From a virus, in UHGV virus genome UHGV-0140617: a DNA stretch of 34,960 bases, one strand, 5' to 3'. The translations under genes and the position numbers were made by a program. Of the stretch, positions 2,225 to 24,709 are shown piece after piece; positions within the stretch are counted from its first letter, which is position 1; every line of letters begins with the position of its first letter. The notes beneath the pieces were generated by a model. The model did no database searches. It had not been told where the DNA came from and worked only from the letters and a program-made list of their open reading frames with translations.

Positions 2225-2235
2225 ATCGCGTCCAT

Positions 2236-2258
2236 AAAAAAAGCCACCGTCAGGTGGC
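2236..2258 (-). terminator. Hairpin plus U-tract between I and J (terminator-like on minus strand)
   Basis: Plus-strand A7 run 2236-2242 then gccac(2243-2247)/gtggc(2254-2258) stem; on the minus strand this is a hairpin followed by UUUUUUU. Confidence 0.4.
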
Positions 2259-2277
2259 TTATAGTACGTGGTTTGGT

Positions 2278-2865
2278 TTATTGCTGATCTTCTGCATAAA
2301 TCCCGGCTGAGATAATCGCACCGCCTATTTCCCTCTGTCCGTAAAGCAAAGGAACGGGGTTACCGGATGCCGTAGTATTGACGGGTCCGCCAAACGCATA
2401 GGAAGGCTTATTATCTGGGTCCTGTCGCATCCTCAGACCAGCAACCTGAGGGGAAAGCATTTGCACTACACCACCCACAGCCATAGAACCAGCTGCGGCA
2501 TATAGCGCCATTTGTGTACCTGCTGCCCATCCTATTGGGTTCCACCAGGTAAAAGCCGCAATTGCGGCGGCAGTAACAATTTGAAAGAGGCCAGCCCTTT
2601 TACTGCCGCGTATTACAGGGATAATGCGAAGTTCATCGCCAGGTCCAAGAAGATCAAACTCTTCCTTTCCTATGTTTATTTGGTTTCGGAAGATGACAAA
2701 ATCCAGCCCTTTCGCTCTGGTCTCGCGCAGGTAAGCATCAAAGCCATCAATGGTGTTAGAAAGCGCCCTGAACACTTCGCTGGCAGACGTTAGTGCGCGG
2801 CGATGCGTCCTGCCAAATCGCTGAGCCATTGAGCCGCTGAGTTTGATAACGGTTTTTCTTTCCAT
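2278..2865 (-). CDS. I: Tail assembly protein I
   Basis: 195 aa, hydrophobic Gly/Ala-rich C-terminal half like lambda gpI; 1-nt overlap with K stop; positioned between K and J. Confidence 0.8.
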   Translation of the reverse strand: MERKTVIKLSGSMAQRFGRTHRRALTSASEVFRALSNTIDGFDAYLRETRAKGLDFVIFRNQINIGKEEFDLLGPGDELRIIPVIRGSKRAGLFQIVTAAAIAAFTWWNPIGWAAGTQMALYAAAGSMAVGGVVQMLSPQVAGLRMRQDPDNKPSYAFGGPVNTTASGNPVPLLYGQREIGGAIISAGIYAEDQQ

Positions 2866-3575
2866 TACATCAAATCCTTATAACGCAGAATTTTGATGGT
2901 ACGGTCACGGTAATAACCACCGTAGGGAATACGCTGGCTTAGCTGGCCATACATGTGATGCAGTAGCATGTTGCCATCAAGCAAAATCCCGGCATGGTTC
3001 GGGACGGTGGACTGTACCTGCATGATAACCATGTCACCGGGCTGAGCTGGACCGTCGTACTCACGGAAACCGCATTCCTGCCAGTTGTCCATATAGAGGT
3101 TTTCACCCTGCTCCCACCAGTGCCGATCTACGCTGTAGTTGGGCAGTTCAATGCCGTGTTCGATGCGGAAATAGTCCATAATGAGAGACCAGCAGTCTGC
3201 ATGCCCGAGTACAAACTGGCGCCCTGTGAGGGGACGGTCTCCGCGAGGCATGACGGTGCGAATGTCGCCCTCAGGCCACGATGCAATAATCCAGGGCAGT
3301 TCCGTGGCATCACACATCAGCATGTCGAGTTCACTCGGCTGGGTTGTTGCCCCGTCGCCGGGGTGACTGTGGACGATCGCCACCACAGTTCCCTGCTCTT
3401 CGGCGGCCGCATAATCCTCAGGATTGAGTTCAAATTGCTCAGTCGGCGACTCAGCATTATTTTTGCAGGGGATGTATTTCTCCACCCGCCCCTTCTGAAT
3501 AACCACGCCACAGCACTCCTCGGGGAAGGATGCGGCGGCATGCGCCAGAATGGCGCTAACTGTTTTGTCGCGCAT
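2865..3575 (-). CDS. K: Tail assembly protein K (JAB/MPN plus NlpC/P60-like)
   Basis: 236 aa; HSHP metal-binding motif (AIVHSHPGD) and Cys/His peptidase-like C-terminal region typical of lambda gpK; gene order L-K-I. Confidence 0.8.
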   Translation of the reverse strand: MRDKTVSAILAHAAASFPEECCGVVIQKGRVEKYIPCKNNAESPTEQFELNPEDYAAAEEQGTVVAIVHSHPGDGATTQPSELDMLMCDATELPWIIASWPEGDIRTVMPRGDRPLTGRQFVLGHADCWSLIMDYFRIEHGIELPNYSVDRHWWEQGENLYMDNWQECGFREYDGPAQPGDMVIMQVQSTVPNHAGILLDGNMLLHHMYGQLSQRIPYGGYYRDRTIKILRYKDLM

Positions 3576-3577
3576 GA

Positions 3578-4336
3578 TTATCCTCTCAGAAGTGAAGCGC
3601 CGGGGAACCCGCCATAATCCAGCTGTTCATTCTCTCCGAAGCGAGGTTTACAGCCCGTTGACAGCAATCCGGAGCAAACATCCTGTGAAGGATCGTCCAC
3701 CCGATTGCCGTCTTTATCGAACCAGCCGTTTTGCCCGGCGTAGGTGCAGCCGTTCCCGGTTTTGTACCAGCCACGCATGCACCACGTGCACATTGGCTGA
3801 ATTTGCCGGGTCGGAATGAGTTGCCCGCGCAGATCGGCTGGACTGGAAAGCTCAAATTCTACAGTTTCATCGTCTGATCCTGATTTACGGTCGATGTAAT
3901 AAACCTGTTTGCGCTCCTCGTTGGGATTCGCAGTCTGGTTCCCATCAGGGAAGTTTCTGGCGTCCAGATAGTGTGCGAAGGTGTCATGGATGATCACCTT
4001 TGCTTTAGCCATCCCCTGAAATCTTCGGCACAGCGCGCCAATCGTGCCGCTGATGTTTGCAACGGTGAGAGACGGTCGTGAACACTGGCCGTCACTGCTG
4101 ACAGATATGCCGGTCAGTTCATACGGCCACGCGCCATACTCCTGCCCCTGCCACCACACCGACTTCGGCTCAAGTTTTGACTCGTCGCCGCCTGCGGCGA
4201 TGATTTCCGCCTCGGTATGCGGGATTGTCTCGTTGTGAAAGCGAAGAATACCTGCACCGAAAGCTGAGCCGTCCACCTCGATCAGGCGGACGCGCTTACC
4301 CGGCTCCAGTTTCTGGACATCAGATGAAATACTCAT
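3578..4336 (-). CDS. L: Minor tail protein L
   Basis: Start taken at internal ATG 4334-4336 (MSISSDVQKLEPGKRVRLIEVDG...), giving lambda gpL-like length; C-terminal Cys cluster (CTWCMRGW...C...C) as in lambda L; ATGA overlap with M stop. Confidence 0.8.
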   Translation of the reverse strand: MSISSDVQKLEPGKRVRLIEVDGSAFGAGILRFHNETIPHTEAEIIAAGGDESKLEPKSVWWQGQEYGAWPYELTGISVSSDGQCSRPSLTVANISGTIGALCRRFQGMAKAKVIIHDTFAHYLDARNFPDGNQTANPNEERKQVYYIDRKSGSDDETVEFELSSPADLRGQLIPTRQIQPMCTWCMRGWYKTGNGCTYAGQNGWFDKDGNRVDDPSQDVCSGLLSTGCKPRFGENEQLDYGGFPGASLLRG

Positions 4337-4671
4337 GGGTGGTATGCCTGTGTGAATGTGCTGCTGAGGGTGTATTTTTTGTTGCCGTGTGTAGATATCT
4401 GAAAGGATTCCGCGCGCCATAAGCCTGATGGCTCAAGCGGCGACTTCCAGATAAATGATTTCCACCCGGCATGTCTGTTGAGAAAGTTTTTAATGGCCTG
4501 AATGTAAGCCTCATCGCCGGTAAAACTCACGCTCCATTGAGATGTTACCGGGTTGATACCATCCCCTGCCACCTGCGTATAGCCATCGCCAAACTGTGCC
4601 TTTCGGGTACGAAAATTTGTATCAACCTGAGAGGCAACCTTTGGGCACCAGCTGAAGGTTTCTACTGTCAT
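4333..4671 (-). CDS. M: Minor tail protein M
   Basis: Start at ATG 4669-4671 (MTVETFSWCPKV...); FGDGYTQ and GWKSF motifs match lambda gpM (FGDGYSQ, GGWKSF); 2 nt after tape measure stop. Confidence 0.8.
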   Translation of the reverse strand: MTVETFSWCPKVASQVDTNFRTRKAQFGDGYTQVAGDGINPVTSQWSVSFTGDEAYIQAIKNFLNRHAGWKSFIWKSPLEPSGLWRAESFQISTHGNKKYTLSSTFTQAYHP

Positions 4672-4673
4672 GG

Positions 4674-7600
4674 TTAAACTCCCTTGATTAATCGCCACAG
4701 AGGCGAGCCCGGCATGCTGGCCTGTTCGTTAATGACGCCAGTGATGGCATCCTTAAGCTGCCTGCCTGCTGCTCCAGCAGTACCCTGACTGGCCGCCTGG
4801 GATGATCCGCCCTGAATATTGATATCGCCGAAGTTAACTGAAGGCATACCACCGGAGACCTGAGGAGTGCCAACAGCCCGAACGCCAAGCGAACCATCAG
4901 CGGCGCGCGTAAGCGGCATAATGGCTTCCGGACCAGCTTCGGCAAAAACCCCTGCACCTTTGGCAAAAGCAAACAGCTGAGGCGTCTGAAAAACGCCATT
5001 GCTGTAAGCGCTCAGGGACGGAGAGTCGTAAACATTACCCTTCGCATTAAAGGTAAAGTTCGCGCCAGCATTCTGAATAGCGGTACCGCTGCTGGCGGTA
5101 GCGGCTGACGAGGCACCAAAACTGAACAGTGAACCAATTGAGCTAACGCCATTAGCAACAGCCATATTCACCAGAACGTTCTGGATAATCTTCAGTACGC
5201 TGACGCCCCAGTCCTTCCAGCTATCAACGTTGCCATTGAGCATGTCGGTGATCGTGGTGACCGCGCCACCCATAGCCTGCTTCATGCCGTCAGCGGCCAT
5301 GGAAGAATAATCAGTAGCTTCGTCCACCCAGTTCGCATAACCCTCAGACAGTCCCGTCATCCAGTCGTCACGCTGCGCATCAGAAGCTGCGTAATATCCC
5401 TCCTGGTCGCGCAGGCGCTCATCGAGATAGCGCTTATTAAGTGCCAGTCCCTGCTGATAGAACGTCTCATCGATTTCACCAGCCTGACGCTGGCGGAGAA
5501 GATCGGTATTCTTCTGCTCGAACTCCTTACGCAGATTGAACTGCTCCTGAAGTCTTTCACGGAACCTGGTACCCTGCCCGTAACCCAGCAGTTGCCCTTC
5601 ATTAGCTGCTCGGGCGCTGGCGTTACTGTCGGCGAGGTTGGCTTCGTAATTTCGCAGTTGCTCACGTAATTTAACCTGGTCAATCAGCGCAGCATTCTGC
5701 AATAACGTCTTTTTCTGGGCTTCTGTCAGAGAAGCAAGCTCGCCCTGGCTGACCTGGTATTTAACCTTCGCCAGTTCAGTATTCTGGCCTTGCAGGGCAA
5801 TCTGCTCTTTTTGCTGTTTGATCAGCTTGTCATAGGCATCAGCTGTTTTTTCCGCCTCGGATTTCCCGCCCTTATGGCGGCTTGAGTCACGAATAGCTTG
5901 CAACTGCCTGGCTGACTCAACTTCCATGCTGACATACTTCTCACGCCAACCAGCAGGGAGATTAAGGTCAGATGCATCGAATTCCGCCTGCTTGCGGGTT
6001 TTGTCCAATCCCTTAAGACCGGACAACTCAAGCTGTCGCTGCGCCTTGTCTATAGCTTGCTGCTGCTTATTATCAAGTGCAGGAAGTACAGGCCCTGCAT
6101 ATTTTGGTGGGGACACTGCTGTAGACTGTCTGGAAACCTTGTTCAGACGGTCATACATCTCTGTAAGAGAACTTACGGCGCCAGCCATTTCTACTGTTTT
6201 ATTTATAGCCTGATCAGTTATGTCGTTTATTAACTGTTGTGTTTGCTTTCTTTTATTGAGCATTTGCTCAAGTCGGCCTTCTTCAACCGCAAGTTCTGAA
6301 GCAAACTCTGCTGATTTCTCAACCGCATCGTTATACAGCCATGTTCCATCTGAAGCAGAATTGGCTGCTAATTTTGCGTTATAAAGTTGATTGGATAATT
6401 CAGCAACTTTCTGCTTCTGCTGTTCAATCGCACTATTTTGAGCATCCAGTGAAATATTCGCCTGTCCAAGGTTGGCGGATATCTGCGTCTGAGACATTGA
6501 TTTCAGATTATCTCGTACCTGCTCGATTGTGTCCGCATATTGGATTGCAGATTCCCTGGCTTGTTCTTGGCGTTGATACATCGTGTACCACGCCCCAGCA
6601 CCCAACATTAAAATTCCTGGCAAACCACCAACTAACGACAAAAGCCCCGTAGCGCCAGACTTGAATAAATTCATTACCGATGTTGATCGGTTGAGTGCTT
6701 CTTGCGACGCTGATACTGCTTTATTTGACTGAACGAGAGTGGAATTGGCGGCTATCATTTCACGCCGTTTGGCAATAGAATTTTGTGTAGCTGTCGCTTC
6801 TGCATTTGTGTTTTTTGCAAGTTCCAACTCGGATAGCGAGAGCTGATAAGCACGCTCGGCAGCAATCGCATCTGCTGCCGCCTTTCGTTGTGATTGGGTA
6901 GCAGATTCAGCCCTTGCAGATGCGAGCGCAATTTCGTTCTTTCTGGCATCTATTAATTGCGCCGTTTGGTTCCCAAGATCGCCAAACATCCCTCCAAGAT
7001 AGCGAGCTCCACCTATTGCAGCCAAAGCTCCGGCAGCCGTAGCCACAGTGTCGATATTGTCAGAAACTGTATTCAATACAGCAACAAGAGCACTTGTCGC
7101 ACCAGTAGCTTCATTAGCTCCACCTACCCATGCCATGAAAGCATTTTCGACTTTCGTCGTGGCAGCAGAAACGGTCTGCGGCATTGCCTCAAATTCACCA
7201 CGCATAGTGCCAAGTTGACTTATCAGGGCCGGGACAACTTTATCTGCGGTTAGCATCCCCTGATCGGCCATTGCCTTCAGATCTTTACGAGCTACACCCA
7301 TCCCAGCGGCCAGCGCACGGATAACTCGATCACCGTTTTCGTTAACAGAGTTGAATTCCTCGCCCCGCAGAACGCCCTGAGCTAATGCCTGACTAAACTG
7401 GGTGATAACAGAACTTGCCTCTGCCGTGCTGGCGCCGGATAGCTTTAGTCCAGTAGAAATGGCCTCGGTTACATCCAGAACTTGCTGCGAACTGTATCCG
7501 TATTCACGCATTGATGCGGCGGAACGCGCAAAAAGACTCGCATTATCAGAGAAGGCGGTTCCGGTTCGTTGGCTAATATCCATCAGCGCCCGCTGAGACT

Positions 7601-7928
7601 CCGTGAAATCATCAGACGATTGGGAAGCCTGCTTTAGCCTGGCATTAACAGAGCTCCATTCATCGGCCAGCGATATAAGATGACCAGTCGCAAATGCTCC
7701 AGCAAATGCACCTGCCATTCCCAGCGCTGAGGCCTTCGCGGTGTTTATTTGACTAGTTACCTCAGCTAAGGCACGCTGAGTTTCACGCGAAGCTGCGGCC
7801 GCTTGGCGTCCTCCAGTCTGCATTACCCGGTAATAGTCATTCCCCATTCTTGAAGCACGAGAAATTTCAGACTGAAATGACTGAGAGTTTGCAGATATTT
7901 TGATGATCAGTTCGCGCAACGTAGCCAT
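4674..7928 (-). CDS. H: Tail tape measure protein
   Basis: About 1084 aa, Ala/Gln-rich coiled-coil-like sequence, position between chaperones and M. Start placed at second ATG (7926-7928, MATLREL) because GGGTGA precedes it, whereas the first ATG (7938-7940) directly abuts a U-tract. Confidence 0.85.
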   Translation of the reverse strand: MATLRELIIKISANSQSFQSEISRASRMGNDYYRVMQTGGRQAAAASRETQRALAEVTSQINTAKASALGMAGAFAGAFATGHLISLADEWSSVNARLKQASQSSDDFTESQRALMDISQRTGTAFSDNASLFARSAASMREYGYSSQQVLDVTEAISTGLKLSGASTAEASSVITQFSQALAQGVLRGEEFNSVNENGDRVIRALAAGMGVARKDLKAMADQGMLTADKVVPALISQLGTMRGEFEAMPQTVSAATTKVENAFMAWVGGANEATGATSALVAVLNTVSDNIDTVATAAGALAAIGGARYLGGMFGDLGNQTAQLIDARKNEIALASARAESATQSQRKAAADAIAAERAYQLSLSELELAKNTNAEATATQNSIAKRREMIAANSTLVQSNKAVSASQEALNRSTSVMNLFKSGATGLLSLVGGLPGILMLGAGAWYTMYQRQEQARESAIQYADTIEQVRDNLKSMSQTQISANLGQANISLDAQNSAIEQQKQKVAELSNQLYNAKLAANSASDGTWLYNDAVEKSAEFASELAVEEGRLEQMLNKRKQTQQLINDITDQAINKTVEMAGAVSSLTEMYDRLNKVSRQSTAVSPPKYAGPVLPALDNKQQQAIDKAQRQLELSGLKGLDKTRKQAEFDASDLNLPAGWREKYVSMEVESARQLQAIRDSSRHKGGKSEAEKTADAYDKLIKQQKEQIALQGQNTELAKVKYQVSQGELASLTEAQKKTLLQNAALIDQVKLREQLRNYEANLADSNASARAANEGQLLGYGQGTRFRERLQEQFNLRKEFEQKNTDLLRQRQAGEIDETFYQQGLALNKRYLDERLRDQEGYYAASDAQRDDWMTGLSEGYANWVDEATDYSSMAADGMKQAMGGAVTTITDMLNGNVDSWKDWGVSVLKIIQNVLVNMAVANGVSSIGSLFSFGASSAATASSGTAIQNAGANFTFNAKGNVYDSPSLSAYSNGVFQTPQLFAFAKGAGVFAEAGPEAIMPLTRAADGSLGVRAVGTPQVSGGMPSVNFGDINIQGGSSQAASQGTAGAAGRQLKDAITGVINEQASMPGSPLWRLIKGV

Positions 7929-7940
7929 ATTTTCACCCAT

Positions 7941-7964
7941 AAAAAAAACCCGCTTGATAGCGGG
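7941..7964 (-). terminator. Intrinsic terminator-like hairpin directly upstream of tape measure start
   Basis: Plus-strand A8 (7941-7948) then cccgc(7949-7953)/gcggg(7960-7964); minus-strand RNA gives hairpin plus UUUUUUUU. Confidence 0.5.
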
Positions 7965-7971
7965 TCGTGAG

Positions 7972-8160
7972 TTATAAACTGTCTTTTCTTTTGTGAGCGA
8001 CTTGTATTAATAAATCTATTTGCGCATCTTGTTTTTTATTTATCTCTTTAAGGGCTTCAACTTGTTCATTTGCCCTTGTGCTAAACCGTATTAAATAAAA
8101 AATCACAATTAGATTTATCAACCAGCCGAATATTCCAAACACTACTACCAGTGGTTCCAT
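7972..8160 (-). CDS. Small single-pass membrane protein (moron) between T and tape measure
   Basis: 62 aa from ATG 8158-8160 (MEPLVVVFGIFGWLINLIVIFYLIRF... then charged helical tail); strong SD AAGGAGG 5 nt upstream; AT-rich relative to flanks; followed by terminator 7941-7964. Confidence 0.6.
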   Translation of the reverse strand: MEPLVVVFGIFGWLINLIVIFYLIRFSTRANEQVEALKEINKKQDAQIDLLIQVAHKRKDSL

Positions 8161-8217
8161 AACGCCTCCTTTTCTTAAGGAAAGAGCGTATCGCCACATT
8201 GATGACATGTGAAGCAA

Positions 8218-8888
8218 TTATTGTGTCGCAGCTGTAAGAGCAGCCTCAAGCCCTGCAAACGGGTCCTTCGGTGCTGATTGCTCATCACCACCCCAGCGCA
8301 GGATCGCATCGTCCAGCGGTACTTTTGCCCCCTGCGAGCCGTAGATGGCAGAGACGAGCTGGGCTGCCTGAATGTCACCACGGATATCGCCAACCGGACT
8401 TTGCCTGTCGTACTCAATCCACATCAGAAGCTCGCTTGCCGTCATATTCTGCCGAAGCTCTGAGAGCGTGCGCCCCATCCGGAGCGCAAGCGACATCAGA
8501 AACTTTACGCCGGGGGTTGAGACTTTTCCCGCGCTTCGTCCGCATTGTTGATCAGGTCAAGCGCCTGTTTGAGCAGGCGTGAATGGACGGGGCCGTAGAT
8601 TTCACGCACCTGCTCTTCTTCGTCTACGCTGAATACCGGCTGCTTATCGGTGTCACACAGAACGTCAATGAAGAGCACCACGTCAGCGCAAAGATTACGG
8701 TGTGCCTTTTCCGATACCGACACATTTTCATCATCAGTACCCGCTTTCACCACCTCCTGCCAGCGCAGCCAGGCTTCACCTGACGGCTCACGCAGAACCA
8801 CTTTGACGCCCTCCCACTCAGGAACGGCGACCGTCTTATGACGAAATCCCGACATCTTAGCCAGGGCGAGATTTTTAATATTCTTCAT
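8218..8888 (-). CDS. GT: Tail assembly chaperone GT fusion (predicted -1 programmed frameshift product)
   Basis: ORF 8218..8496 (MSLALRMGRTLSEL...) is in the -1 frame relative to G and open back through the G 3' end; slippery-like run CGGGAAAAG (sense) at 8523-8530, about 20 nt before the G stop. Confidence 0.55.
8505..8888 (-). CDS. G: Tail assembly chaperone G
   Basis: 127 aa acidic protein between major tail protein and tape measure; downstream T-frame ORF lies in the -1 frame. Confidence 0.7.
   Translation of the reverse strand: MKNIKNLALAKMSGFRHKTVAVPEWEGVKVVLREPSGEAWLRWQEVVKAGTDDENVSVSEKAHRNLCADVVLFIDVLCDTDKQPVFSVDEEEQVREIYGPVHSRLLKQALDLINNADEAREKSQPPA
8523..8530 (-). other. Candidate -1 frameshift slippery site (GGGAAAAG) for G to GT
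   Basis: Sense sequence GCG CGG GAA AAG TCT in the G frame; the -1 frame (GGA AAA) is open into the T ORF. Confidence 0.4.
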
Positions 8889-8896
8889 GCGACCTC

Positions 8897-9340
8897 TCAG
8901 GAGCCAGACTCGATGTTTTCAGGCTTACCTTTCAGGCGCAGGGAGAACGTTGCCGCAACTACGCCGTTGGTACCGGAAGACCAGGTGTGCTGGCGGATTT
9001 CAGCCAGGAACTTAAAGCCCTTGCCGGACGGGAAGATAACCTGGAAAGCGTAGGTCGTATCGTTGTCATACGCTTCACGCAAGGCGTCCTGCGCCGGGTT
9101 TTTGTAGAAGTTGCCGGACAGAGAGATTTCTGACGGAGAAGGCAGGCCGTTGATGTTCTCCTGCTCGGTAGAGCAAAGCGTGGTTACGTCGATATCCTGC
9201 TTCTGGCCACCAGTGAACTGAATTTCTTTGATGGTGCAACTCAGATCGAGGAAGGTTGCGGTATCCATCGTTTCTTTGGTGGCTGGCGCAGAGGAAATAA
9301 GGATCTTCGTCAGCTGCGATTTTTCATAAAGTGCAGACAT
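8897..9340 (-). CDS. V: Major tail (tube) protein
   Basis: 147 aa, position immediately upstream of chaperones; SD AGGAGA before ATG 9338-9340. Confidence 0.7.
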   Translation of the reverse strand: MSALYEKSQLTKILISSAPATKETMDTATFLDLSCTIKEIQFTGGQKQDIDVTTLCSTEQENINGLPSPSEISLSGNFYKNPAQDALREAYDNDTTYAFQVIFPSGKGFKFLAEIRQHTWSSGTNGVVAATFSLRLKGKPENIESGS

Positions 9341-9354
9341 AGCTGTCTCCTGGT

Positions 9355-9379
9355 AAAAGAAAACCCGCCATTAAGCGGG
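9355..9379 (-). terminator. Terminator-like hairpin between tail-terminator gene and major tail gene
   Basis: cccgc(9364-9368)/gcggg(9375-9379) with minus-strand UUUUCUUUU (plus 9355-9363). Confidence 0.4.
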
Positions 9380-9399
9380 TTCGTTGGGTGAATGATTTA

Positions 9400-9747
9400 T
9401 CAAGGTGTAACTTTAAAATCCAGGGTGGCACGGTATAGCCGATAATATGGCTCGTATCCGGGGATTTTTACCACCTCTGTAGGGTTTAACGACTTAAGCG
9501 AAGCAAGCGCCAAATCTCTCAGAGATCGTGATTCAGTGATCGTTGTGGCATACACATCGACCTGAACGGAAACCCTGCTCTCTGCCTGGCCACACATCAC
9601 GTCAGCGGAAACATCATCGACGATGGAAAAGATAATCCAGGGTGGAGTGACCGACGGTTTCCCGTCACTACCTAATGGCGCAACATAGGGATATACCCGT
9701 CCTTCTGCCAGGGGAGAAAGCAAGGCGTAGATATTATCTTCATTCAC
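9400..9747 (-). CDS. Putative tail terminator / tail completion protein
   Basis: 115 aa; GTG start 9745-9747 overlapping the upstream stop (GTGA); position between head-tail joining genes and major tail gene. Confidence 0.5.
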   Translation of the reverse strand: MNEDNIYALLSPLAEGRVYPYVAPLGSDGKPSVTPPWIIFSIVDDVSADVMCGQAESRVSVQVDVYATTITESRSLRDLALASLKSLNPTEVVKIPGYEPYYRLYRATLDFKVTP

Positions 9748-10193
9748 TTGCTCAATACCTCATCAATAGCCTGACTCATCCTGGCAATGGCGACGCTGGC
9801 GGCCTCTTCCTCGCGCGTATCGTAAGCGGGTCGCACAAACGGATGTGCAGGCATGTTCGCGGTGCCCATTTCTACGAATCGCCAGTAAAAGGCGTTTCTC
9901 GGGTTATTCGCCTTCATCGTGTTATCGCTGTTGCCGGTGCGCGGGTTAACGCCACGAATATGGACGCCGGAAGAAATTTCCCCGCGGCGACGGCTTTTTT
10001 GGGTCACCACCACCACGTTTTTTTTCAGTTTCCCGGTGCGCACCGGTGCACGGGCGATCACTTCTTCCTTAAGCACTTCGGCGCCGGCGCGCGTGGCATC
10101 ACGCAGAACCTTGTTGTTTTCAGCGCGGCTAAGCGCCTCCAGGTCTTTTGCTATGTCATTTAACCCAGAAAAATCGAGGCTCGTCTCAATCAT
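9744..10193 (-). CDS. HK97 gp10-family head-tail joining protein
   Basis: Motif WRFVEMGT...HPFVRPA typical of that family; start at ATG 10191-10193 overlapping the upstream stop (ATGA). Confidence 0.65.
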   Translation of the reverse strand: MIETSLDFSGLNDIAKDLEALSRAENNKVLRDATRAGAEVLKEEVIARAPVRTGKLKKNVVVVTQKSRRRGEISSGVHIRGVNPRTGNSDNTMKANNPRNAFYWRFVEMGTANMPAHPFVRPAYDTREEEAASVAIARMSQAIDEVLSK

Positions 10194-10534
10194 TTTTCGG
10201 TCCCCTGTTTGCAAAGAATTTCAAGCTGGGTCCCTTTAGGGTCAGGTATGGGCGGCCCTACCACATTCAACGTTTGGCCCTTATATGGACCAGAGAGCAC
10301 CTTCAACCTGGAGGTAGCATAAATACTCGATCCGCTTTTAAATCTCACCCATACCCTTATTGTTGCTTCAGCATGCTCAGCACCAGATGCCATCATTTCC
10401 CGCCCGCTTCTTCCTTTCACTTCAGCAGAGATGGTTTTCCCATCTTCCCATTTTTCAACCGGCTGGCCGGAAGGCGTTCTGGAGGTTGTGAAGTTCTGAA
10501 TGGTGACCCTGTGCCGTAATCGTCCTGCCTGCAT
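10190..10534 (-). CDS. Head closure / head-tail adaptor protein (SPP1 gp16-like)
   Basis: 114 aa starting MQAGRLRHRVTIQ..., characteristic of head-tail adaptor proteins; strong SD AGGAGGTGAT. Confidence 0.7.
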   Translation of the reverse strand: MQAGRLRHRVTIQNFTTSRTPSGQPVEKWEDGKTISAEVKGRSGREMMASGAEHAEATIRVWVRFKSGSSIYATSRLKVLSGPYKGQTLNVVGPPIPDPKGTQLEILCKQGTEK

Positions 10535-10542
10535 ATCACCTC

Positions 10543-10863
10543 CTACGTGCCTGGTACTTTGCGGTGCTGTTCAAAAATTGATTTGACGCCGAACGGGATA
10601 GTATTAACGCTGTCGCCGCTCACAGGTTCCCTGTTTTCATACCAGTGCGACACCAGGAGCATCAGGGCCAGTTTGATATCATCTTCTATCACCAGTCCAT
10701 CAGGATCGTCGTCTGGAACAGCGTTATCATAAAGACGGCAATTAGTCATTTTTTCCGCATGCTTCAGAGAGGCGTTGAGGTAGAGCGTTAACATCACATC
10801 TTCTGTGTCATCATCGCTGTCGATACGGCACTGGTAACGAAGCTCTTTTACAGAGGGCTTCAT
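10543..10863 (-). CDS. Head-tail connector protein (HK97 gp6-like)
   Basis: 106 aa acidic protein immediately after the capsid block; typical size and position. Confidence 0.6.
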   Translation of the reverse strand: MKPSVKELRYQCRIDSDDDTEDVMLTLYLNASLKHAEKMTNCRLYDNAVPDDDPDGLVIEDDIKLALMLLVSHWYENREPVSGDSVNTIPFGVKSIFEQHRKVPGT

Positions 10864-11075
10864 TTTCCCTCACCCCGCTTATTGCTGGTTTTAGGCTTAA
10901 CTGGTGTTTCAATTTCAGGCTGTTCAGTGCCGTCGAGAATCCCCATCTGAGAAGCAACCTCAAGAGCACGGTCAGGAAGTGTGCCAGCCTCATATTCACC
11001 AGCAGGAATGTTTCTGACCTGAATGCCATCAGGTGACCATTTCAGGTCTTTTTTCAGCAGCATCATGACCTCCAT
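10860..11075 (-). CDS. Small hypothetical head-module protein
   Basis: 71 aa ORF, ATGA-coupled to the connector gene; no recognisable motif. Confidence 0.4.
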   Translation of the reverse strand: MEVMMLLKKDLKWSPDGIQVRNIPAGEYEAGTLPDRALEVASQMGILDGTEQPEIETPVKPKTSNKRGEGK

Positions 11076-11081
11076 AAGAAT

Positions 11082-11095
11082 GGGGCCGAAGCCCC
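11082..11095 (-). other. GGGGC-UUCG-GCCCC tetraloop hairpin just downstream of the major capsid gene
   Basis: Plus ggggccgaagcccc; the minus-strand RNA forms a 5-bp GC stem with a UUCG loop 7 nt after the capsid stop; likely mRNA stabiliser or attenuator. Confidence 0.5.
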
Positions 11096-11101
11096 ATCAG
11101 A

Positions 11102-12310
11102 TTATGCGCCAGCACCGATCTGCAGCAGTTTGATGGCCTGAGAATCGGCCAGCATTCCGCCTGTACGTTTGGTGGTGTAGAAACCAACGAATGGTTTGTT
11201 GGTGTACGGGTCGCGGAGGATGCGGGTACCAATGCGATCAACGATGGTATAGCCGCGTTTAAAGTTACCGAACGCAATGGCTTTCGCATCAGCAGCGATA
11301 TCCGGCATTTGCTCATTCTCAGCAACGCCATAACCCGCCAGAGAGGAAGGCTGGCCCAGCTCAAGGCCCGGACGCCAGAGATAGTTACCCTCTGAGTCCT
11401 TCAGAATGCGAACCGCAAACAGACTGTTGTTGTTCATCATGAACTTAGCGCCGTTGCGGTGCACCTTGCGCAGGGTGTAGACCAGCTTGATAATCGCATC
11501 GGCCGTCACACCCGCCGCCGCACCGGAAAGAATGTGCTGCAGGGTGCCAAAAGCACGGGTTTTATCGTCATCCAGAGAAGAGGCATAGGCCAGAAAGCCT
11601 TTCGGTTTTTTCGTACCGTTGCCGCTGGTGAAAGCGATTTCTTCCTGTTCGGAGAACTCAACCGCCAGTTCGCTGTTGATCCAGTCCTCTACATTGAAGA
11701 AGGCATCATCCAGCATCGTTTGGGTTGCCTGAGGGTTTCCGTAGATTTCACCCATGAACGGTTCAATCTGACCGAGTTTAGATGCAGCAGTCTCAGGGCG
11801 GGCATCAGTTTCACCAACCCAGCCGGAAGCCGTACCGCCGAGATTAACCAGTTTTTTATAGTTAGCGCCGCCGACTGTGATGGTTGTCGCCTCCTGGCGC
11901 ATCACCACTTCATCTTTCAGAAGATTAAGGATCGTTCGATCCAGTTCTTCCGGCACGGCATAGCCACCATCTTCATCCACACCGACCTGCAGAGCTTTGC
12001 GTTCAAGTTCGCGCAGCCCGTCATCTTTACCCTTACGCATAAAGCCAATGAAAGCGGTTTTATGTTCGCTTGCGGCTTTGCTCTGAGGACCACCGGCTGG
12101 ACGTTTAACCTGCTTCAGTTCCTCTTCCAGCGCAGATTTAAGCTCATCCAGTTCAGACAACTTGCCGTTTAAGGTTTCAACCTCCCCCGCTAACTTGCCC
12201 TTTTCCTGTTCAACTGCTTCCAGGCGCTTATCGTTCTTTTCTTTGAACGCATCAAACTTCGCCTGCAGTTCCTGCGCGACCTGCTCTACGTCTTTAACGT
12301 CAACTGACAT
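11102..12310 (-). CDS. Major capsid protein, HK97 family (with N-terminal delta/scaffold domain)
   Basis: About 402 aa from ATG 12308-12310 (MSVDVKDV...); N-terminal coiled-coil delta domain then HK97-fold body; SD AGGAG; follows the prohead protease. Confidence 0.9.
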   Translation of the reverse strand: MSVDVKDVEQVAQELQAKFDAFKEKNDKRLEAVEQEKGKLAGEVETLNGKLSELDELKSALEEELKQVKRPAGGPQSKAASEHKTAFIGFMRKGKDDGLRELERKALQVGVDEDGGYAVPEELDRTILNLLKDEVVMRQEATTITVGGANYKKLVNLGGTASGWVGETDARPETAASKLGQIEPFMGEIYGNPQATQTMLDDAFFNVEDWINSELAVEFSEQEEIAFTSGNGTKKPKGFLAYASSLDDDKTRAFGTLQHILSGAAAGVTADAIIKLVYTLRKVHRNGAKFMMNNNSLFAVRILKDSEGNYLWRPGLELGQPSSLAGYGVAENEQMPDIAADAKAIAFGNFKRGYTIVDRIGTRILRDPYTNKPFVGFYTTKRTGGMLADSQAIKLLQIGAGA

Positions 12311-12323
12311 AATTAACTCCTGA

Positions 12324-12977
12324 TTAAAATTTGATGTTTTTAAGTGCATCCAGTGCGGTACTCACTTCATCAACATCACGCTGTGAAAGTGAGCTATAAC
12401 CCCCGGCCATGAATGCTTTAGCCTGGGTGCGTGAGAGCCCAACATCGCGCAGGACTCGTTCAATACTTTTTTGAGAAGGGATTTCTCCGCGGGAAAATGC
12501 GCTTTTGACATCACTTACACGCGCTTCATCGTTCGACGGAAACGTGACGAGACTGACTTCCCACAGGTCGATCTCTTTGAGAAGGAACACGCCCTTAACA
12601 CGGTCGTATTCCCAGTCTTTCAGCATGTAACCAATAGAAAGGCCGGTTAAAGAACCGGCCTTCATGTGGGCGTGTGCGCGTTTCGAAAGGGGATCGTCAT
12701 CAATGAGTAACCGGCCTTTAACATAAAGGCCAACCTCATCCTCTTTCATCTCGGTGTAAATACCGATGGGTTCATCCATACGGTGCTGCCAGAGTAATGC
12801 AGGGAGAGCATTCTTTTCTTTCCATGCCTGAAGGGAGGCCGAAAAAGCGCCTGGCACAACAACATCATCGTAGCTGTCCTTTACGCCAAAAACAGAGCCA
12901 TAGCCTTCAAACTCCCCGCTGTCGCTGACAGACTTTAGCTGTAGCGGAATATCCAGCCGCTGTTTAGTCATCGGCAT
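12324..12977 (-). CDS. Prohead protease (HK97 family, S78)
   Basis: 217 aa; position between portal and capsid; HK97-protease-like sequence. Confidence 0.85.
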   Translation of the reverse strand: MPMTKQRLDIPLQLKSVSDSGEFEGYGSVFGVKDSYDDVVVPGAFSASLQAWKEKNALPALLWQHRMDEPIGIYTEMKEDEVGLYVKGRLLIDDDPLSKRAHAHMKAGSLTGLSIGYMLKDWEYDRVKGVFLLKEIDLWEVSLVTFPSNDEARVSDVKSAFSRGEIPSQKSIERVLRDVGLSRTQAKAFMAGGYSSLSQRDVDEVSTALDALKNIKF

Positions 12978-14193
12978 TATGTTGTTCCTCGGTTGTTTTG
13001 TTCTTGCTGCTGTCTGACGGTTTCGTCGTCATGTTCATTGGCGTAAGGTAAATATCTCCGCCTGCGCGTGGGTTAAGTTCTTCAAGTTCCCGGCAGTCAT
13101 TTGGTGAGTAAATACCCCAGTTAATGCCTGTTGAATACGCCTCAAATCGCGACTTCATATCCCCGCGCAGCAATGCGCCGGCATTGAATTTTGCGTAGTA
13201 CACACCCTGCTTTGATTCCTTCACCAGCCCGATGTTGATTCGCTGCTCAATGCGGGTCATATACGGAACGAGTGAATAATTGATAAACCCCATGCCGAGG
13301 TTTTCAATATTGTTAAACGTCGAGCGGTCAGTGTTCTGCACCATGTGCATCGGCACACGGAACAGGCGGCATATTTCCTCCAGCTGGAATTTCCTGGTCT
13401 CAAGGAACTGACTGTCTTCCGCATTGAGCGCCATCGACTTCCAGTCCAGTCCCATTTCGAGAATCATTGGTCGGTGCGCGTTGCTCAGCCCGAGGTGACG
13501 GTCCTCAAAATCCTTTTTCAGCCTTGCGTAAGCAGCGTCAGTGAGCGTTTGCTCAGTGCGGAGTACGCCGGAGGTAACCGCGCCATTTGAGAACAACCGC
13601 GCCCCATGTTCCTCTGTTGCCATTCCCAGAGATATTGCTTCTCTTGCATAGGCTATAGGGTTCAGCCCCACCAGCCCGTCAAAGGTAAGCGTTCTGACAT
13701 GCCAGATATCATCCTGCCCAAGCACGTCTGTTGAGCCATCGGGGAATGTTACCTGGTAAACCGGTTGCCACTGGCTGTTAAGCTTTGGTTCAACACACCC
13801 AGGGTCAATGGGAAGAAGCTCCACCACCTCGCCAAGCGCTTTAACTTTGTAGGCGTAAAAATTACCGCGAAGACAAAGACAGACAATGACCAGTTCCCAG
13901 AACTCCTGGGGGGTCATGTAATCATTTGGCTTCATCGTCAGTAATTTATGCAGCCTTTCGGAAGTCGCTTTTTGTTTACTGTTTCCGGTTATCTTGTACA
14001 GGTTACAGGGCAGCATGCCCATCGACTCAGCAAGAACACGGATGCAACCGAAAACCGCTGTAAGCCGCATGGCTTTCTGGCTGCTTACCCTTTTCCCTGT
14101 ATAGGTGTCGTAAGTCATTCCCACTGCTTCAGCGAGTTCTGCCGCAGTAGTGACAGGGGCATCACTTTTTTTGAACATTCCGGGGAAAAACAT
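12964..14193 (-). CDS. Portal protein (HK97 family)
   Basis: 409 aa; typical portal length and sequence; follows terminase. Confidence 0.9.
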   Translation of the reverse strand: MFFPGMFKKSDAPVTTAAELAEAVGMTYDTYTGKRVSSQKAMRLTAVFGCIRVLAESMGMLPCNLYKITGNSKQKATSERLHKLLTMKPNDYMTPQEFWELVIVCLCLRGNFYAYKVKALGEVVELLPIDPGCVEPKLNSQWQPVYQVTFPDGSTDVLGQDDIWHVRTLTFDGLVGLNPIAYAREAISLGMATEEHGARLFSNGAVTSGVLRTEQTLTDAAYARLKKDFEDRHLGLSNAHRPMILEMGLDWKSMALNAEDSQFLETRKFQLEEICRLFRVPMHMVQNTDRSTFNNIENLGMGFINYSLVPYMTRIEQRINIGLVKESKQGVYYAKFNAGALLRGDMKSRFEAYSTGINWGIYSPNDCRELEELNPRAGGDIYLTPMNMTTKPSDSSKNKTTEEQHNADD

Positions 14194-14378
14194 CAGTCAG
14201 TCCCTCCTCGCAATGTTTTCCCGGCCAGCGAAAGCGTGCGGGAAACCAGCCATGACCAGATAAGGCAAAGCATACCGGCACTGATTAAACCTCCTGGCGG
14301 ATAAATCATCCATACACCAAACGAAAGCAAAATAGCGCCCATCACCCCGATCAGCGGGGCGAGAATCATCAGGATCAT
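14193..14378 (-). CDS. Small hydrophobic protein between terminase and portal
   Basis: 61 aa, two predicted TM helices; ATGA-type overlap with portal start. Confidence 0.35.
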   Translation of the reverse strand: MILMILAPLIGVMGAILLSFGVWMIYPPGGLISAGMLCLIWSWLVSRTLSLAGKTLRGGTD

Positions 14379-14388
14379 AACTGCCTCT

Positions 14389-16146
14389 TTATAATGAACG
14401 GACGCCGTAACTTTCCAGATGGTCAGAGAGGCTGTCCTGTTGTTCGCCGCCGTTTACAAGCATGCGGCTCATTGCGGTAAACAAGGCGGCAGGCCCGTCT
14501 ATTTTCGCTTCTGGCGTGGATTTGTTCGGAAAGATATTGTCGTTTTTGTCAGGTTTGACGGTGACATTAGACATCATCCAGTTCATTACAGGATGATTGC
14601 TGTGATGAAAACGCCCGCCGTAAACCAGCGATTCAACCTCTTTCATTGACTCAGAAAAGTTTCTGACCGTCTGCGGAACCTCCACCAGCGGCACGCCCTC
14701 TTCTGCCAGAGCCAGGCTAAACTGCGTTGCGCTCCACGGGTCGAATCCGGTTTCCTTCAGGTTTTCGCCACTAATCCATTCCAGAAAATCAGCTTTAATC
14801 TGCGCATGATCGATAACATCACCATCGGTCAGTTCCAGCTTCCCAAGCTCAGCCCATTTGCGATACATCTGCGCCATTTGAGCGGAACATTTTTCCAGCC
14901 GCCCTTCGGGTAACCAGAATTTAAAGTCTGCATGCGCGTGACCGTTGTCTGCCCGCCAGAGTTTTACTGCTGCGCAAATATCAATCTTGTGGGCCAGATC
15001 CACGCCAGCCCACATCGGGTAGGTTTTCAGCTCATGACGGGGGGCTATAAACTCACATTTTTCCCACTTGATCATGTCCATCCAGGCTGACTCAGCGGTC
15101 ACCCAGATATTCATGTGTTTGGTGAAAAAGTTAACCCTGGCGGAAACTTGTTCTTTGGCCTTCTTAGCCAGACGGCGAAGGTCATCCCAGCGCTTACAGA
15201 TTCCGAGTCCGGGGTTAGCCTTTTGCCACACCGTTTCATCAAACGGATCATCATCTTTATCCAGGGTGAAGATGATGGCGAAAAAGGTGTCATCCTTCAC
15301 CGCGCCTTCCACTTCGCTGTTATAGCCACGCAGCACCTTAATGGCATAATCGCGCAGCTCGTAACAAATCCCTTCTTTGTTAAACCCGGCTGTCGTTATG
15401 CCAAACAGAAGAGACTGCAATCGTGCGCCGGTTGCAGTCTCCAGAACGTCCCAGACATCACGGGTTTTATGCGCATGAAGTTCGTCGACGATGCCACAAT
15501 GGATGTTGAGACCATCAAGATTGTTGGCATCAGAAGATAGCGGTTCAAACTTGGATGCTGTCTGCTCCTGGTAGATCGCCAGTTTGTTGAATTCAAACAG
15601 TCGCCCAAGTGTGGGTTTCGCTTTTTTAACCATGTTTTTCGCATCTTCAAAAACGATGCGAGCCTGATCCCGCGTTGTCGCTGCGGAATAAACCTCTGCC
15701 CCGCCCTCACCATCGGCGCCAGCCATATAGAGACCAACGCCAGAGGATAATGTCGATTTGGCGTTTTTACGGGCTACCTCGTTATATGCCGTGCGAAACC
15801 TGCGGACCATCACAGGACGGCCACTGCCATCATTACGCAGCACGACTTCGCCTGTTTCTTCATTTACCAGTGGGATAACAAAACCGAAAATGTTGATCAG
15901 AATGAAAATATGCCAGTCCATCAGCTCAATCGGCTGGCCTGCCAGTGCTCCTTTTACATGAGGCACGAATTTATAGAAATTGAGGATGTGCTGTGCGCGG
16001 GGCTCGCTGAAATAGATACCACGTTCCTCACCGTATTTCAGATCATCAAGAAAACGCTGGCAGGCGAGGCGGACAAATTCACAAGTGATAACTTCACCGG
16101 CAACGACGCGTTCGGCGTAACGTATCCCATCGGCAACTTTAGCCAT
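14389..16146 (-). CDS. Terminase large subunit
   Basis: 585 aa; N-terminal ATPase region and C-terminal nuclease region typical of Terminase_1 family; TAATG-type overlap with the small subunit. Confidence 0.9.
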   Translation of the reverse strand: MAKVADGIRYAERVVAGEVITCEFVRLACQRFLDDLKYGEERGIYFSEPRAQHILNFYKFVPHVKGALAGQPIELMDWHIFILINIFGFVIPLVNEETGEVVLRNDGSGRPVMVRRFRTAYNEVARKNAKSTLSSGVGLYMAGADGEGGAEVYSAATTRDQARIVFEDAKNMVKKAKPTLGRLFEFNKLAIYQEQTASKFEPLSSDANNLDGLNIHCGIVDELHAHKTRDVWDVLETATGARLQSLLFGITTAGFNKEGICYELRDYAIKVLRGYNSEVEGAVKDDTFFAIIFTLDKDDDPFDETVWQKANPGLGICKRWDDLRRLAKKAKEQVSARVNFFTKHMNIWVTAESAWMDMIKWEKCEFIAPRHELKTYPMWAGVDLAHKIDICAAVKLWRADNGHAHADFKFWLPEGRLEKCSAQMAQMYRKWAELGKLELTDGDVIDHAQIKADFLEWISGENLKETGFDPWSATQFSLALAEEGVPLVEVPQTVRNFSESMKEVESLVYGGRFHHSNHPVMNWMMSNVTVKPDKNDNIFPNKSTPEAKIDGPAALFTAMSRMLVNGGEQQDSLSDHLESYGVRSL

Positions 16147-20636: not shown

Positions 20637-20825
20637 TTACTTTCTCAGCACTCCTTCATTCGGGCTGCTTGAAGTATAAGGTGTATAGTTATCAGGTGTA
20701 ATCATTGAAGATTTACAAAAAATACACTTTGCACCAAAGGGATTTTTCTCAGTCACATCAAAATGAGATGTTCTGTACTGTGACCCATGACAACAAGGGC
20801 ACTTAAAATAAATATGAGCAGTCAT
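20637..20825 (-). CDS. Small zinc-ribbon-like protein
   Basis: 62 aa with CPCC-H ... C-IF-C cysteine pairs; in the Q-to-lysis accessory region. Confidence 0.5.
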   Translation of the reverse strand: MTAHIYFKCPCCHGSQYRTSHFDVTEKNPFGAKCIFCKSSMITPDNYTPYTSSSPNEGVLRK

Positions 20826-21247: not shown

Positions 21248-21460
21248 TCAGGCAGCTACAACGTTTTCGGCTGACGGCCCTTTTGCACCAGCAGTGATGC
21301 TGAACTCAACTTTTTGGCCTTCATTCAGCGTTTTAAAACCACCACTCTGAATGGCAGAGAAGTGTACAAACACATCTTTACTACCGTTATCAGGGGTAAT
21401 AAAACCAAAACCTTTAGATTCATTAAACCATTTTACTAAACCAGTCATTTTATTAGACAC
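21248..21460 (-). CDS. Cold-shock protein, CspA family (prophage-borne paralog)
   Basis: 70 aa [38 protein letters not shown]... with RNP1/RNP2 motifs; ORF-track start is GTG (21458-21460), alternative ATG at 21446-21448. Confidence 0.9.
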
Positions 21461-22524: not shown

Positions 22525-23340
22525 TCAATAAGTTGTTGCTTTCTCAAATTCTGATGATGCCTGACGCTCTCCCTTGTGCAGTGCATCAACCAACATTTCA
22601 TAGAATGGCTTCCAGTTACGAGACCATGAGGACTGATGGAGATCCGGCAGACGTTTAAGGATAGCCCGGTGAACGGTCGCAGATGACACTCTGGAATACC
22701 CCTCGCCGCTGCAACGCTCACACGTTTTGAAAACCGGTGCGCCGCGGTCTTTTGTCGCGATGCGGTCCAGTACCTCGCCCTTTCCACCACAACGGCAGCG
22801 GGCGCTGATTGTTCCCTTGCCTTCGCAACTATCACAGACGGCCGGTACAACCTCTGTTACCTCAGTCCAGTGCTCCCAGTCAGACGGACGAACGGCACGA
22901 GAGCGGTTAGCCCAATATGGTGCTTTACCCCATGGGTACGAAACCTTACGGGTGACCTGTTCGCGGGTTGTCCGTCCGGTACCATTGCAGCTGTGACACG
23001 TCACGCTGGTAGCCGCCGAACGAGAGTATTCAGCAAAGGCAAATTGCGCCAGCATCAGCATGCACCATCCCAACTCACCACCGGCTGCTTTGCGCACGTT
23101 CTTTGGTGCTGTCTCCATTGCGTGGCGTGCCAGCGCCTGAACCGCAAGTTGCTCATCGCTTTTGCTGATCCCGGTTTTACCAAAGAAAGCGGACAGACCA
23201 AAACGCGCGCGGCTGCTGGTCGTACCGATGGCTACCATAACATCGGTTCCGGTGAGGCGATCCGGAGAGGTGCCTTTCACGCTGTCGCTGATGTGCATCC
23301 CCTGAGGGCTGAAATGTTTGAGTGATGATTCCAACTTCAT
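22525..23340 (-). CDS. Q: Late-gene antiterminator Q-like protein
   Basis: 271 aa from ATG 23338-23340 (MKLESSLKHF...) with SD GAGGA; CxxC zinc-binding pairs (CHSCNGTG, CDSCEGKG, CERCSGEG); position between replication genes and the lysis region. The longer track ORF is an N-terminal over-extension. Confidence 0.75.
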   Translation of the reverse strand: MKLESSLKHFSPQGMHISDSVKGTSPDRLTGTDVMVAIGTTSSRARFGLSAFFGKTGISKSDEQLAVQALARHAMETAPKNVRKAAGGELGWCMLMLAQFAFAEYSRSAATSVTCHSCNGTGRTTREQVTRKVSYPWGKAPYWANRSRAVRPSDWEHWTEVTEVVPAVCDSCEGKGTISARCRCGGKGEVLDRIATKDRGAPVFKTCERCSGEGYSRVSSATVHRAILKRLPDLHQSSWSRNWKPFYEMLVDALHKGERQASSEFEKATTY

Positions 23341-23350
23341 GATAATTTCC

Positions 23351-24709
23351 TCAGGCTTTTGCATACCGACGCGGTTGTGATTTTTGCTGCGAGGCTGATT
23401 TTGATTTCGCTTCTTCCTGGTCAATCGGCAGAAAATGCCCGTTGTAGAAACGGCGGTACACGGTTCCAAGAACGCCGTTACGCTGTTTGGTGATGTTAAT
23501 TTCCGCGATCCCTTTCGCCGGCGATTCGGGGTTATACACTTCATCGCGATAGAGCATCATGATGATGTCAGCATCCGCCTCAATTTCGCCGGAGTTCTTC
23601 AGGTCAGAGTTCATGGGACGTTTATTCGGTCGGGATTCCACGCCTCTGGAAAGCTGGCTCAGGGCCAGAACGGGAGTGCGGTTTGTTTTGGCAAGTCGCT
23701 TTAATCCCTTCGACAGTTCACCCACCGCGAGGTCATAGCGTGCCGTGCTCTGGATCTTAATGAGTAACAGATAATCGATAACCACCAGCGCGGTTTCTGG
23801 ATGAGAAATCTGATGACTGGTTGCCGTTTGCTCGATCTGCTCAAGCGTCAGATCTGTGGCATCGACCATCCAGATATTGCGCCCGGTAAGATGCCCGATA
23901 CCTGTAGATAACCTTGCCCAGTCTTCATCTTCAAACTTCGCGGCTGCTTTGAGCCTGGACACTGACATACCACCAGCAGCAGATACCATTCGCTCGCCAA
24001 TCTGGATGTTGGCCATCTCCATGCTGAAAAACAGTACGCCATGCCCCTGCTCTGATACCTTATCGATAATGTCCAGTGCCAGCTCGGTTTTCCCCATCGA
24101 CGGACGAGCCGCGATGAAGACCAGATCTGTCGGTTCAATGCCGCCGGTTTTAGCGTCCAGTTCTTCAATGCCGGTCATCAGCGGTTTGGCCTCTTCCAGC
24201 CCCTGATTTCTTGCATCTACCCGGTCAATTACTGCAGGTAAGATTTCATCAATATGCACAGGTTGAACGGTATCAGGAGTGAGTGAAATTGAAGCCATGG
24301 CCTCCTGCGCGGCTTTCAACGCTTCGACTGCGTTTTCACCATTGGCAGCATTGCGAATGCCAGCCAACGCTGTCTCGATTACAGCCTCGGCGTCACGAAC
24401 GGCAGCATTACGTTCCAGTGTGGAAACGTAATACGTCAGAGCTGATTTAGCCCATGCGATACGGCTTGACTCGAGTATCGTTGCGCTGTGTTCTGGCATG
24501 ATCTCACACAGCAACAGCGGATCTATCACTCCGGTCCCCCGAGCCTGACGACAAATGCCGGAATATATTTCACGGTACTGACGGACAGAGAATGCGCTCG
24601 CCGGCATACGGGAAAGAATGCCCAGAACCTCAGGATCGGTATTGCGCAGAAAAATCGCGCCAATTACCGCACCTTCCAGATCATTATTTTTCCATACCGG
24701 AGTCATCAT
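23351..24709 (-). CDS. Replicative DNA helicase (DnaB family)
   Basis: 452 aa; Walker A ARPSMGKT, and RecA-like core motifs. Confidence 0.9.
   Translation of the reverse strand: MMTPVWKNNDLEGAVIGAIFLRNTDPEVLGILSRMPASAFSVRQYREIYSGICRQARGTGVIDPLLLCEIMPEHSATILESSRIAWAKSALTYYVSTLERNAAVRDAEAVIETALAGIRNAANGENAVEALKAAQEAMASISLTPDTVQPVHIDEILPAVIDRVDARNQGLEEAKPLMTGIEELDAKTGGIEPTDLVFIAARPSMGKTELALDIIDKVSEQGHGVLFFSMEMANIQIGERMVSAAGGMSVSRLKAAAKFEDEDWARLSTGIGHLTGRNIWMVDATDLTLEQIEQTATSHQISHPETALVVIDYLLLIKIQSTARYDLAVGELSKGLKRLAKTNRTPVLALSQLSRGVESRPNKRPMNSDLKNSGEIEADADIIMMLYRDEVYNPESPAKGIAEINITKQRNGVLGTVYRRFYNGHFLPIDQEEAKSKSASQQKSQPRRYAKA

Follow-up and report, generated by a model that had tools for sequence, protein, structure and literature searches.

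[quoted passage not shown] The window, by which we mean the whole 34,960-nt stretch that was analysed (UHGV virus genome UHGV-0140617), is a temperate lambdoid genome with an integrase, a CI-type repressor, a DnaB-type helicase, a Q antiterminator, a holin, an endolysin and an HK97-type head. An earlier note on the same DNA had described the gene as a moron, that is, a single-pass membrane protein of 62 aa inserted with its own ribosome-binding site and terminator in an AT-rich segment of the tail operon, and had guessed at a role in lysogenic conversion or superinfection exclusion while calling the function unknown.

A small gene in an AT-rich slot of the tail operon

The late genes of the window lie on the minus strand, and the tail genes follow one another in the order major tail protein, G, T, a 289-bp slot and the tape measure gene. 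The features needed below are:

33597-34910, integrase
28011-28670, plus strand, CI-type repressor with HTH and S24 peptidase domains
22525..23544, minus strand, Q-type late antiterminator (Pfam Antiterm, Antitermination protein Q, E 3e-54)
8897..9340, minus strand, major tail protein, 147 aa
8505..8888, minus strand, G tail assembly chaperone (Pfam Phage_TAC_1, E 2.5e-59; 93% identical to HK97 gp13)
8218..8496, minus strand, T part of the G-T tail assembly chaperone (Pfam Phage_tail_T, E 7e-20)
7929..8217, minus strand, whole AT-rich moron slot, from the T stop codon to the probable tape measure start
8165..8171, minus strand, Shine-Dalgarno sequence AAGGAGG, 4 nt before the ATG, identical in HK97
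7972..8160, minus strand, gp15-like CDS, 62 aa plus stop, YebO-family and, as judged below, HK97 gp15 orthologue
7941..7966, minus strand, intrinsic terminator found by a terminator scan (8-bp G+C-rich stem, ATCA loop, T8)
4674..7928, minus strand, tape measure protein, 1084 aa from MATLREL (TMP_3, Phage_HK97_TLTM and Tape_meas_lam_C domains)

T is reached through a -1 frameshift; at 8530..8523 there is a GGGAAAAG motif, from which the -1 frame continues open into T, and the arrangement matches the -1 frameshift product annotated in HK97. On the other side of the slot, the first in-frame ATG of the tape measure gene (7940, MGENMATL...) was dropped as its start in favour of 7928, which is most likely the true start because the proteins of HK97, Enterobacter phage LAU1 (MN688132.1) and Escherichia phage SaltyDalty (PP925825.1) all begin MATLREL. 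The 147-aa major tail protein lacks the C-terminal ~90 residues of HK97 gp12 (234 aa), and PGAP flags the equivalent gene of E. coli EC2001 as an incomplete pseudogene; since SaltyDalty and LAU1 have the same form, it is probably a functional short variant. A second terminator-like hairpin with a weak T tail (GAACCCGC...GCGGGTTT; 9361-9382, minus strand) lies between the tail terminator and major tail genes, at the position where a putative terminator is annotated in HK97 too.

The ORF in the slot runs on the minus strand from ATG 8160 to the stop codon at 7974..7972 and encodes the 62-aa sequence MEPLVVVFGIFGWLINLIVIFYLIRFSTRANEQVEALKEINKKQDAQIDLLIQVAHKRKDSL. A mechanical ORF list had given an 81-aa reading with a TTG start (8217..7972); the ATG at 8160 was preferred because of its Shine-Dalgarno sequence, because HK97 gene 15 has the same 189-nt CDS and because the alignments with homologues begin at M1. 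The 19-residue Kyte-Doolittle mean rose to 2.55 within residues 3-24 and showed no other hydrophobic stretch, and AlphaFold2 modelled a single continuous helix over residues 2-61 (pLDDT 94.6). On hydropathy and this single long helix, the product is predicted to be a single-pass inner-membrane protein with its transmembrane segment at residues ~3-24, in agreement with the topology proposed in the earlier note.

The signals around the ORF were likewise all present on the minus strand as they had been described, namely the AAGGAGG sequence and a hairpin followed by eight T residues. The terminator stem (GACCCGCT/AGCGGGTT) occupies 7966..7947, and the T8 run (7948..7941) directly adjoins the first ATG that is in frame with the tape measure ORF. 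The folded RNA had an energy of -13 kcal/mol (z = -4.95), which none of 200 shuffled sequences reached. Every base of this terminator recurs in HK97, whose annotation likewise marks it as a putative terminator. The local AT-richness was also borne out: GC was 0.345-0.355 in 200-nt windows across 7900-8199 and 0.50-0.59 on both sides, and it was 0.317 in the gp15-like CDS and 0.36 in the slot against 0.584 in T and 0.51 in the first kb of the tape measure gene.

A strict σ70 scan of 7700-9500 gave no promoter. Under relaxed settings there were three 8/12 matches where 1.85 would be expected from shuffles, no more than chance, the best of them being TTGAGG-N18-CACAAT at 8249..8220; furthermore, the HK97 record has no promoter annotated at gene 15. 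Since a σ70 promoter could not be recognised, the case for an independent transcript in the lysogen comes from the HK97 literature, not from the window sequence.

Relationship to HK97 gene 15 and to YebO

When the protein was compared by tblastn with the annotated phage collection, it was 95.2% identical to HK97 Gp15 over 62/62 aa (E 9e-33), and full-length matches with 96.8% identity were found in HK75, HK446, mEp234, HK544, HK106, HK633 and mEpX1. Only three differences, all conservative, separate it from HK97 Gp15 (L14M, I24L and K57Q in HK97). In addition, the DNA from the T stop codon to the tape measure start is 97% identical to that of HK97, Shine-Dalgarno sequence and terminator included, and the two slots are equal in length. 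In the HK97 records, a 189-nt CDS annotated as "Gp15, moron product" and the putative terminator behind it separate the G/T frameshift pair from the tape measure gene H. The term moron was first applied to the element that contains HK97 gene 15, between the tail chaperone and tape measure genes (PMC3594210), so that the earlier note had used the word for an orthologue of the very gene for which it was introduced.

The protein matched phrog_5031 (E 8e-29) and, over residues 14-58, Pfam YebO (PF13974) with 38.9 bits against a gathering cutoff of 27 (E 1e-9). Its identity to E. coli K-12 YebO is 38% over 48 residues (E 6e-7), which cover the end of the transmembrane helix and an R-x-S-x-R-x-NEQ motif; the C-terminal ~33 residues of YebO have no counterpart, and similarity over the full length of YebO was not found. 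These matches place the protein in the Pfam YebO family, within a diverged phage subfamily. The same is said in PMC3594210, where gp15 homologues are assigned to the YebO family and the gp15 C-terminus is called highly diverged from YebO. The Pfam score above the curated cutoff, the phrog_5031 match and the in-frame conservation at 53% identity in Klebsiella prophages show that the ORF is more than a chance reading frame.

Taken together, these comparisons show that the slot gene is an orthologue of HK97 gene 15, the archetypal moron, in a new mosaic background, and hence an already known gene. The gene is near-identical to a textbook example and implies no new biology; only the behaviour of the T/tape measure junction as a cargo slot and a natural chimeric tape measure protein, both described below, are mildly new. 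The identification is of use for annotation, because the gene can be named as a gp15-type superinfection exclusion protein where many phage records have a hypothetical protein. The cassette occurs in 6 of 5426 complete E. coli genomes (megablast), and PGAP names its product there "YebO family protein".

Contents and history of the T/tape measure junction

The earlier note had suggested comparing the presence and absence of the insert at this junction in related phages, and the comparison proved informative. HK022, the phage of the original comparison, has only 19 nt from T to the tape measure gene and no gp15-like gene. Between 9393 and 8222, the DNA of LAU1, SaltyDalty and AsXd-1 is ~96% identical to that of the window; the similarity ends at 8222, four bases before the end of T, and LAU1 and SaltyDalty carry different cargo in the slot. 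Absence from HK022 and replacement in LAU1 and SaltyDalty show that the gp15-like gene is accessory and not a conserved assembly component.

The LAU1 slot (L003:3530-3895) holds a 121-aa ORF with a GGAGGG Shine-Dalgarno sequence and a lipoprotein signal (MVKILILIIFLIAGC), which is under-annotated in the record as a 55-aa fragment with a TTG start. Its product matches phrog_27124 (unknown function) and had no Pfam match; it may be a different exclusion factor. In the SaltyDalty slot (L002:3537-3830), the gene is unrelated; its 97-aa product bears a signal peptide that looks cleavable (MKKLVLFVLFFGFSCVSNA), has six cysteines in its mature part and gave no PHROG match and only sub-threshold Pfam matches (E about 0.07). 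Both slots have a GC of 0.33 and a terminator of their own just before the tape measure start, formed by a hairpin and T8 in LAU1 and by a hairpin and a T run in SaltyDalty. PADLOC gave no match for either cargo protein.

At the end of T, the last codons (8218-8232) encode the same residues, …TAATQ*, with the codons GCGACACAATAA in the window and HK97 versus GCAACTCAGTGA in LAU1 and SaltyDalty (L002/L003 3470-3485). From this codon switch it follows that the cassette has its left recombination boundary within T, a few codons from the end. In the window, these codons also create a weak -10-like CACAAT hexamer. In these sequence comparisons, the T/tape measure junction behaves as a cargo-exchange site.

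A YebO-like gene was found in the same slot of Klebsiella prophages, where it encodes 77 aa with 53% identity to the window protein, matches phrog_5031, has a GC of 0.35 and is followed by its own terminator. In the ST101-KPC2phi6.3 prophage (QBQ71586.1, 77 aa; L009:4483-4716), the protein likewise sits between T (DUF4035) and the tape measure gene and is 15 aa longer at its C-terminus. The surrounding module has diverged to a similar extent, with identities to the window of 59% for the tail terminator protein, 72% for the major tail protein, 55% for G, 63% for T and 52% for the tape measure protein, and the distal tail genes of the Klebsiella prophage are unrelated to those of the window. The similar divergence of the YebO-like gene and its neighbours indicates that the element is old and has been inherited together with the tail module. 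Reading the low GC as a mark of recent acquisition is unlikely to be correct, since the Klebsiella homologue is equally AT-rich (0.35) in a module that has diverged to 52-72% identity.

Two further Klebsiella loci were noted. In ST147-VIM1phi7.2 (L007:2098-4716), an IS21-family element consisting of a transposase and an AAA ATPase has inserted between T and the YebO-like gene. In phage VLCpiS11a (Guernseyvirinae; L008:4489-4743), which belongs to a different subfamily, a weaker YebO-like gene is flanked by the tail assembly chaperone gene and a minor tail protein gene and is encoded on the opposite strand; it has 31% identity, 26.6 bits to Pfam YebO (just below the cutoff) and a phrog_5031 match of E 1e-8.

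The wider mosaic map showed how the cassette is linked to its neighbours. DNA from 42 to ~5800 is of the LAU1 type (94%), that from ~5800 to 8222 of the HK97 type only, and that from 8222 to 10225 resembles both. The tape measure gene is therefore chimeric: ~5800-7928, which encodes the N-terminal ~700 aa, is of the HK97 type only, and 4674 to ~5800 is closer to LAU1 (94-98%). Besides gp15, the HK97-type block thus takes in the first ~700 residues of the tape measure protein, with a hydrophobic segment near 431-453, so that gp15 travels with its presumed target. Compared with HK97 gp16, the window tape measure protein is 90% identical overall; it is near-identical over residues 1-1020, and its last ~65 aa are unrelated. 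At window positions 6600-6800 (~aa 376-443, before the hydrophobic segment), DNA identity to HK97 drops to 0.745. The different ~65-aa C-terminal stretch and the diverged 6600-6800 region could alter sensitivity, and such a natural chimera could help to map the part of the tape measure protein on which gp15 acts. A closely related prophage lies by yecD-aspS in E. coli EC2001 and matches window positions 42-10865 at 94.4% and 11068-17347 at 93.6%.

We also considered a broader reading, in which the T/tape measure junction of HK97-type modules is a dedicated slot for interchangeable, AT-rich, self-terminated genes for small envelope-targeted proteins, each an entry-blocking exclusion factor encoded beside its tape measure target. 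We hold this generalisation to be doubtful. A one-to-one pairing of cargo with tape measure allele was weakened, as the tape measure proteins of SaltyDalty and LAU1 are 97.5% identical and their cargo is different. If the broader reading were true, the determinant of gp15 sensitivity would fall in the N-terminal two-thirds of the tape measure protein.

Other AT-rich segments were seen elsewhere in the window. An island at ~20500-22500 (GC 0.34-0.38), between the Q antiterminator and the holin, contains a CspA-like cold-shock ORF (21460..21248, minus strand), a Cys-rich 62-aa ORF (20825..20637, minus strand) and a 70-aa ORF (21997-22209, plus strand), and is probably another cargo or moron region. 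An AT-rich stretch at 28500-30000 (GC 0.38-0.40) directly adjoins the CI-like repressor gene, and the neighbourhood of the repressor gene is a typical place for prophage-expressed accessory genes.

Proposed function and known exclusion systems

The function that the earlier note had called unknown has been published for HK97 gp15 since 2012, and one of the two roles that it guessed, superinfection exclusion, is the one reported. An addendum by the authors of the primary study (PMC3594210), which covers Juhala et al. 2000 and Cumby et al. 2012, describes gp15 as a prophage-expressed protein that becomes inserted in the inner membrane and stops superinfection by HK97 and HK75. In the account given there, receptors are not blocked and repressor immunity is not needed. 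The same addendum reports that a swap of the tail region between HK97 and HK022 relieves the block, which shows that it depends on the incoming phage. In the HK97 literature, escape from gp15 is obtained by replacing the tail tube/tape measure region, to which the tape measure gene belongs. According to a 2025 preprint that cites Cumby et al. 2015, HK97 requires LamB, the periplasmic chaperone FkpA and PtsG, an inner-membrane transporter with which the HK97 tape measure protein interacts. We conclude that the window protein is very probably a gp15 orthologue acting as a superinfection exclusion factor. Prophage expression, the block of injection and its dependence on tail genes are taken over here from HK97, and the window allele, with its three substitutions, would be expected to behave in the same way.

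In the mechanism that we propose, residues ~3-24 would anchor gp15 in the inner membrane and the remaining ~37 residues would form a polar helix, to which the positive-inside rule, given E2 before the anchor and R25 and R29 behind it, would assign a cytoplasmic location. Phages with HK97-type tails would still adsorb to a lysogen, and their DNA would be stopped at the inner membrane. The most likely route would be that gp15 disturbs the step at which the incoming tape measure protein inserts into the membrane or forms a channel, or the use that this protein makes of PtsG. Our confidence in this specific step is considerably lower than in the identity of gp15 as an exclusion factor. If the C-terminal helix is cytoplasmic, as predicted, gp15 is unlikely to touch the tape measure protein directly in the periplasm, and contact would be made within the bilayer or through PtsG. 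During lytic growth, RNA polymerase modified by Q would read through the mid-operon terminator, so that the tail genes would still be expressed; with a Q protein encoded in the window, lambdoid regulation suggests that a terminator inside the late operon need not block them.

Three other explanations of the gene were weighed. One is that gp15 retains a YebO-like role in host physiology, a form of lysogenic conversion, instead of or besides exclusion. The Pfam match above the curated cutoff, the 38% identity to K-12 YebO and the PGAP name speak for such a role, but YebO itself has no known function, gp15 has 62 aa against the 95 aa of YebO and lacks its acidic C-terminal tail, and PMC3594210, besides stressing the diverged C-terminus, reports that neither deletion nor overexpression of YebO in E. 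coli affected HK97. On this evidence, a physiological role is improbable. Another explanation, that gp15 is an integral tail-assembly or virion component of this HK97-type tail, would account for its place inside the tail operon and for its persistence in the same slot of Klebsiella prophages despite a module identity of 52-72%. It fares poorly against the phages already described, since HK022 lacks the gene and LAU1 and SaltyDalty remain ~96% identical through G/T with unrelated cargo behind them; moreover, base composition, Shine-Dalgarno sequence and terminator mark a separate unit, and the addendum describes a prophage-expressed exclusion factor (PMC3594210). We regard a structural role as very improbable.

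Toxins, too, commonly combine a short and very hydrophobic N-terminal helix with a charged tail, and gp15 could in principle be a small membrane toxin, such as a holin-like or depolarising peptide acting as a type I toxin or abortive-infection effector, rather than a blocker of injection. However, an Rfam scan of 7700-8500 on both strands (E up to 1) gave no match, antisense RNA families included, and PADLOC-DB 2.0 (E up to 0.1) gave no defence-model match for the protein. In the published descriptions, furthermore, gp15 is present in healthy lysogens, acts at entry and is escaped according to the tail genes of the incoming phage, which fits exclusion and not abortive killing. A toxin is thus highly unlikely, and the exclusion factor is the reading with which we compare the window protein to known systems.

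The closest of these is HK97 gene 15 itself (Gp15; NP_037709.1; AAF31105.1), which the window gene resembles in its 62 aa, its slot, its Shine-Dalgarno sequence and terminator, its AT-richness and the adjacent HK97-type tape measure gene. The window differs from HK97 in its LAU1-type distal tail, its non-HK97 head genes beyond ~10225 and its major tail protein of 147 rather than 234 aa. E. coli YebO (b1825) shares with the window protein an N-terminal transmembrane helix followed by an R-x-S-x-R-x-NEQ-(V/I)-E-x-L segment, but it is chromosomal, has 95 aa and carries a 9-residue N-terminal extension and an acidic C-terminal tail. SieA of P22, Ltp of TP-J34 and Sie2009 of Tuc2009 have no sequence relationship to the gp15-like protein, for which, besides YebO, Pfam gave only a sub-threshold match to TUNAR (E 0.1). 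Ltp, a lipoprotein, comes from Gram-positive hosts, SieA is larger and polytopic, and, unlike gp15, none of the three is encoded in a tail operon beside its target. The likeness lies in what they do: all are prophage-expressed envelope proteins that block DNA entry after adsorption, and it is in tape measure or tail genes that escape from Ltp, like escape from gp15, has been mapped.
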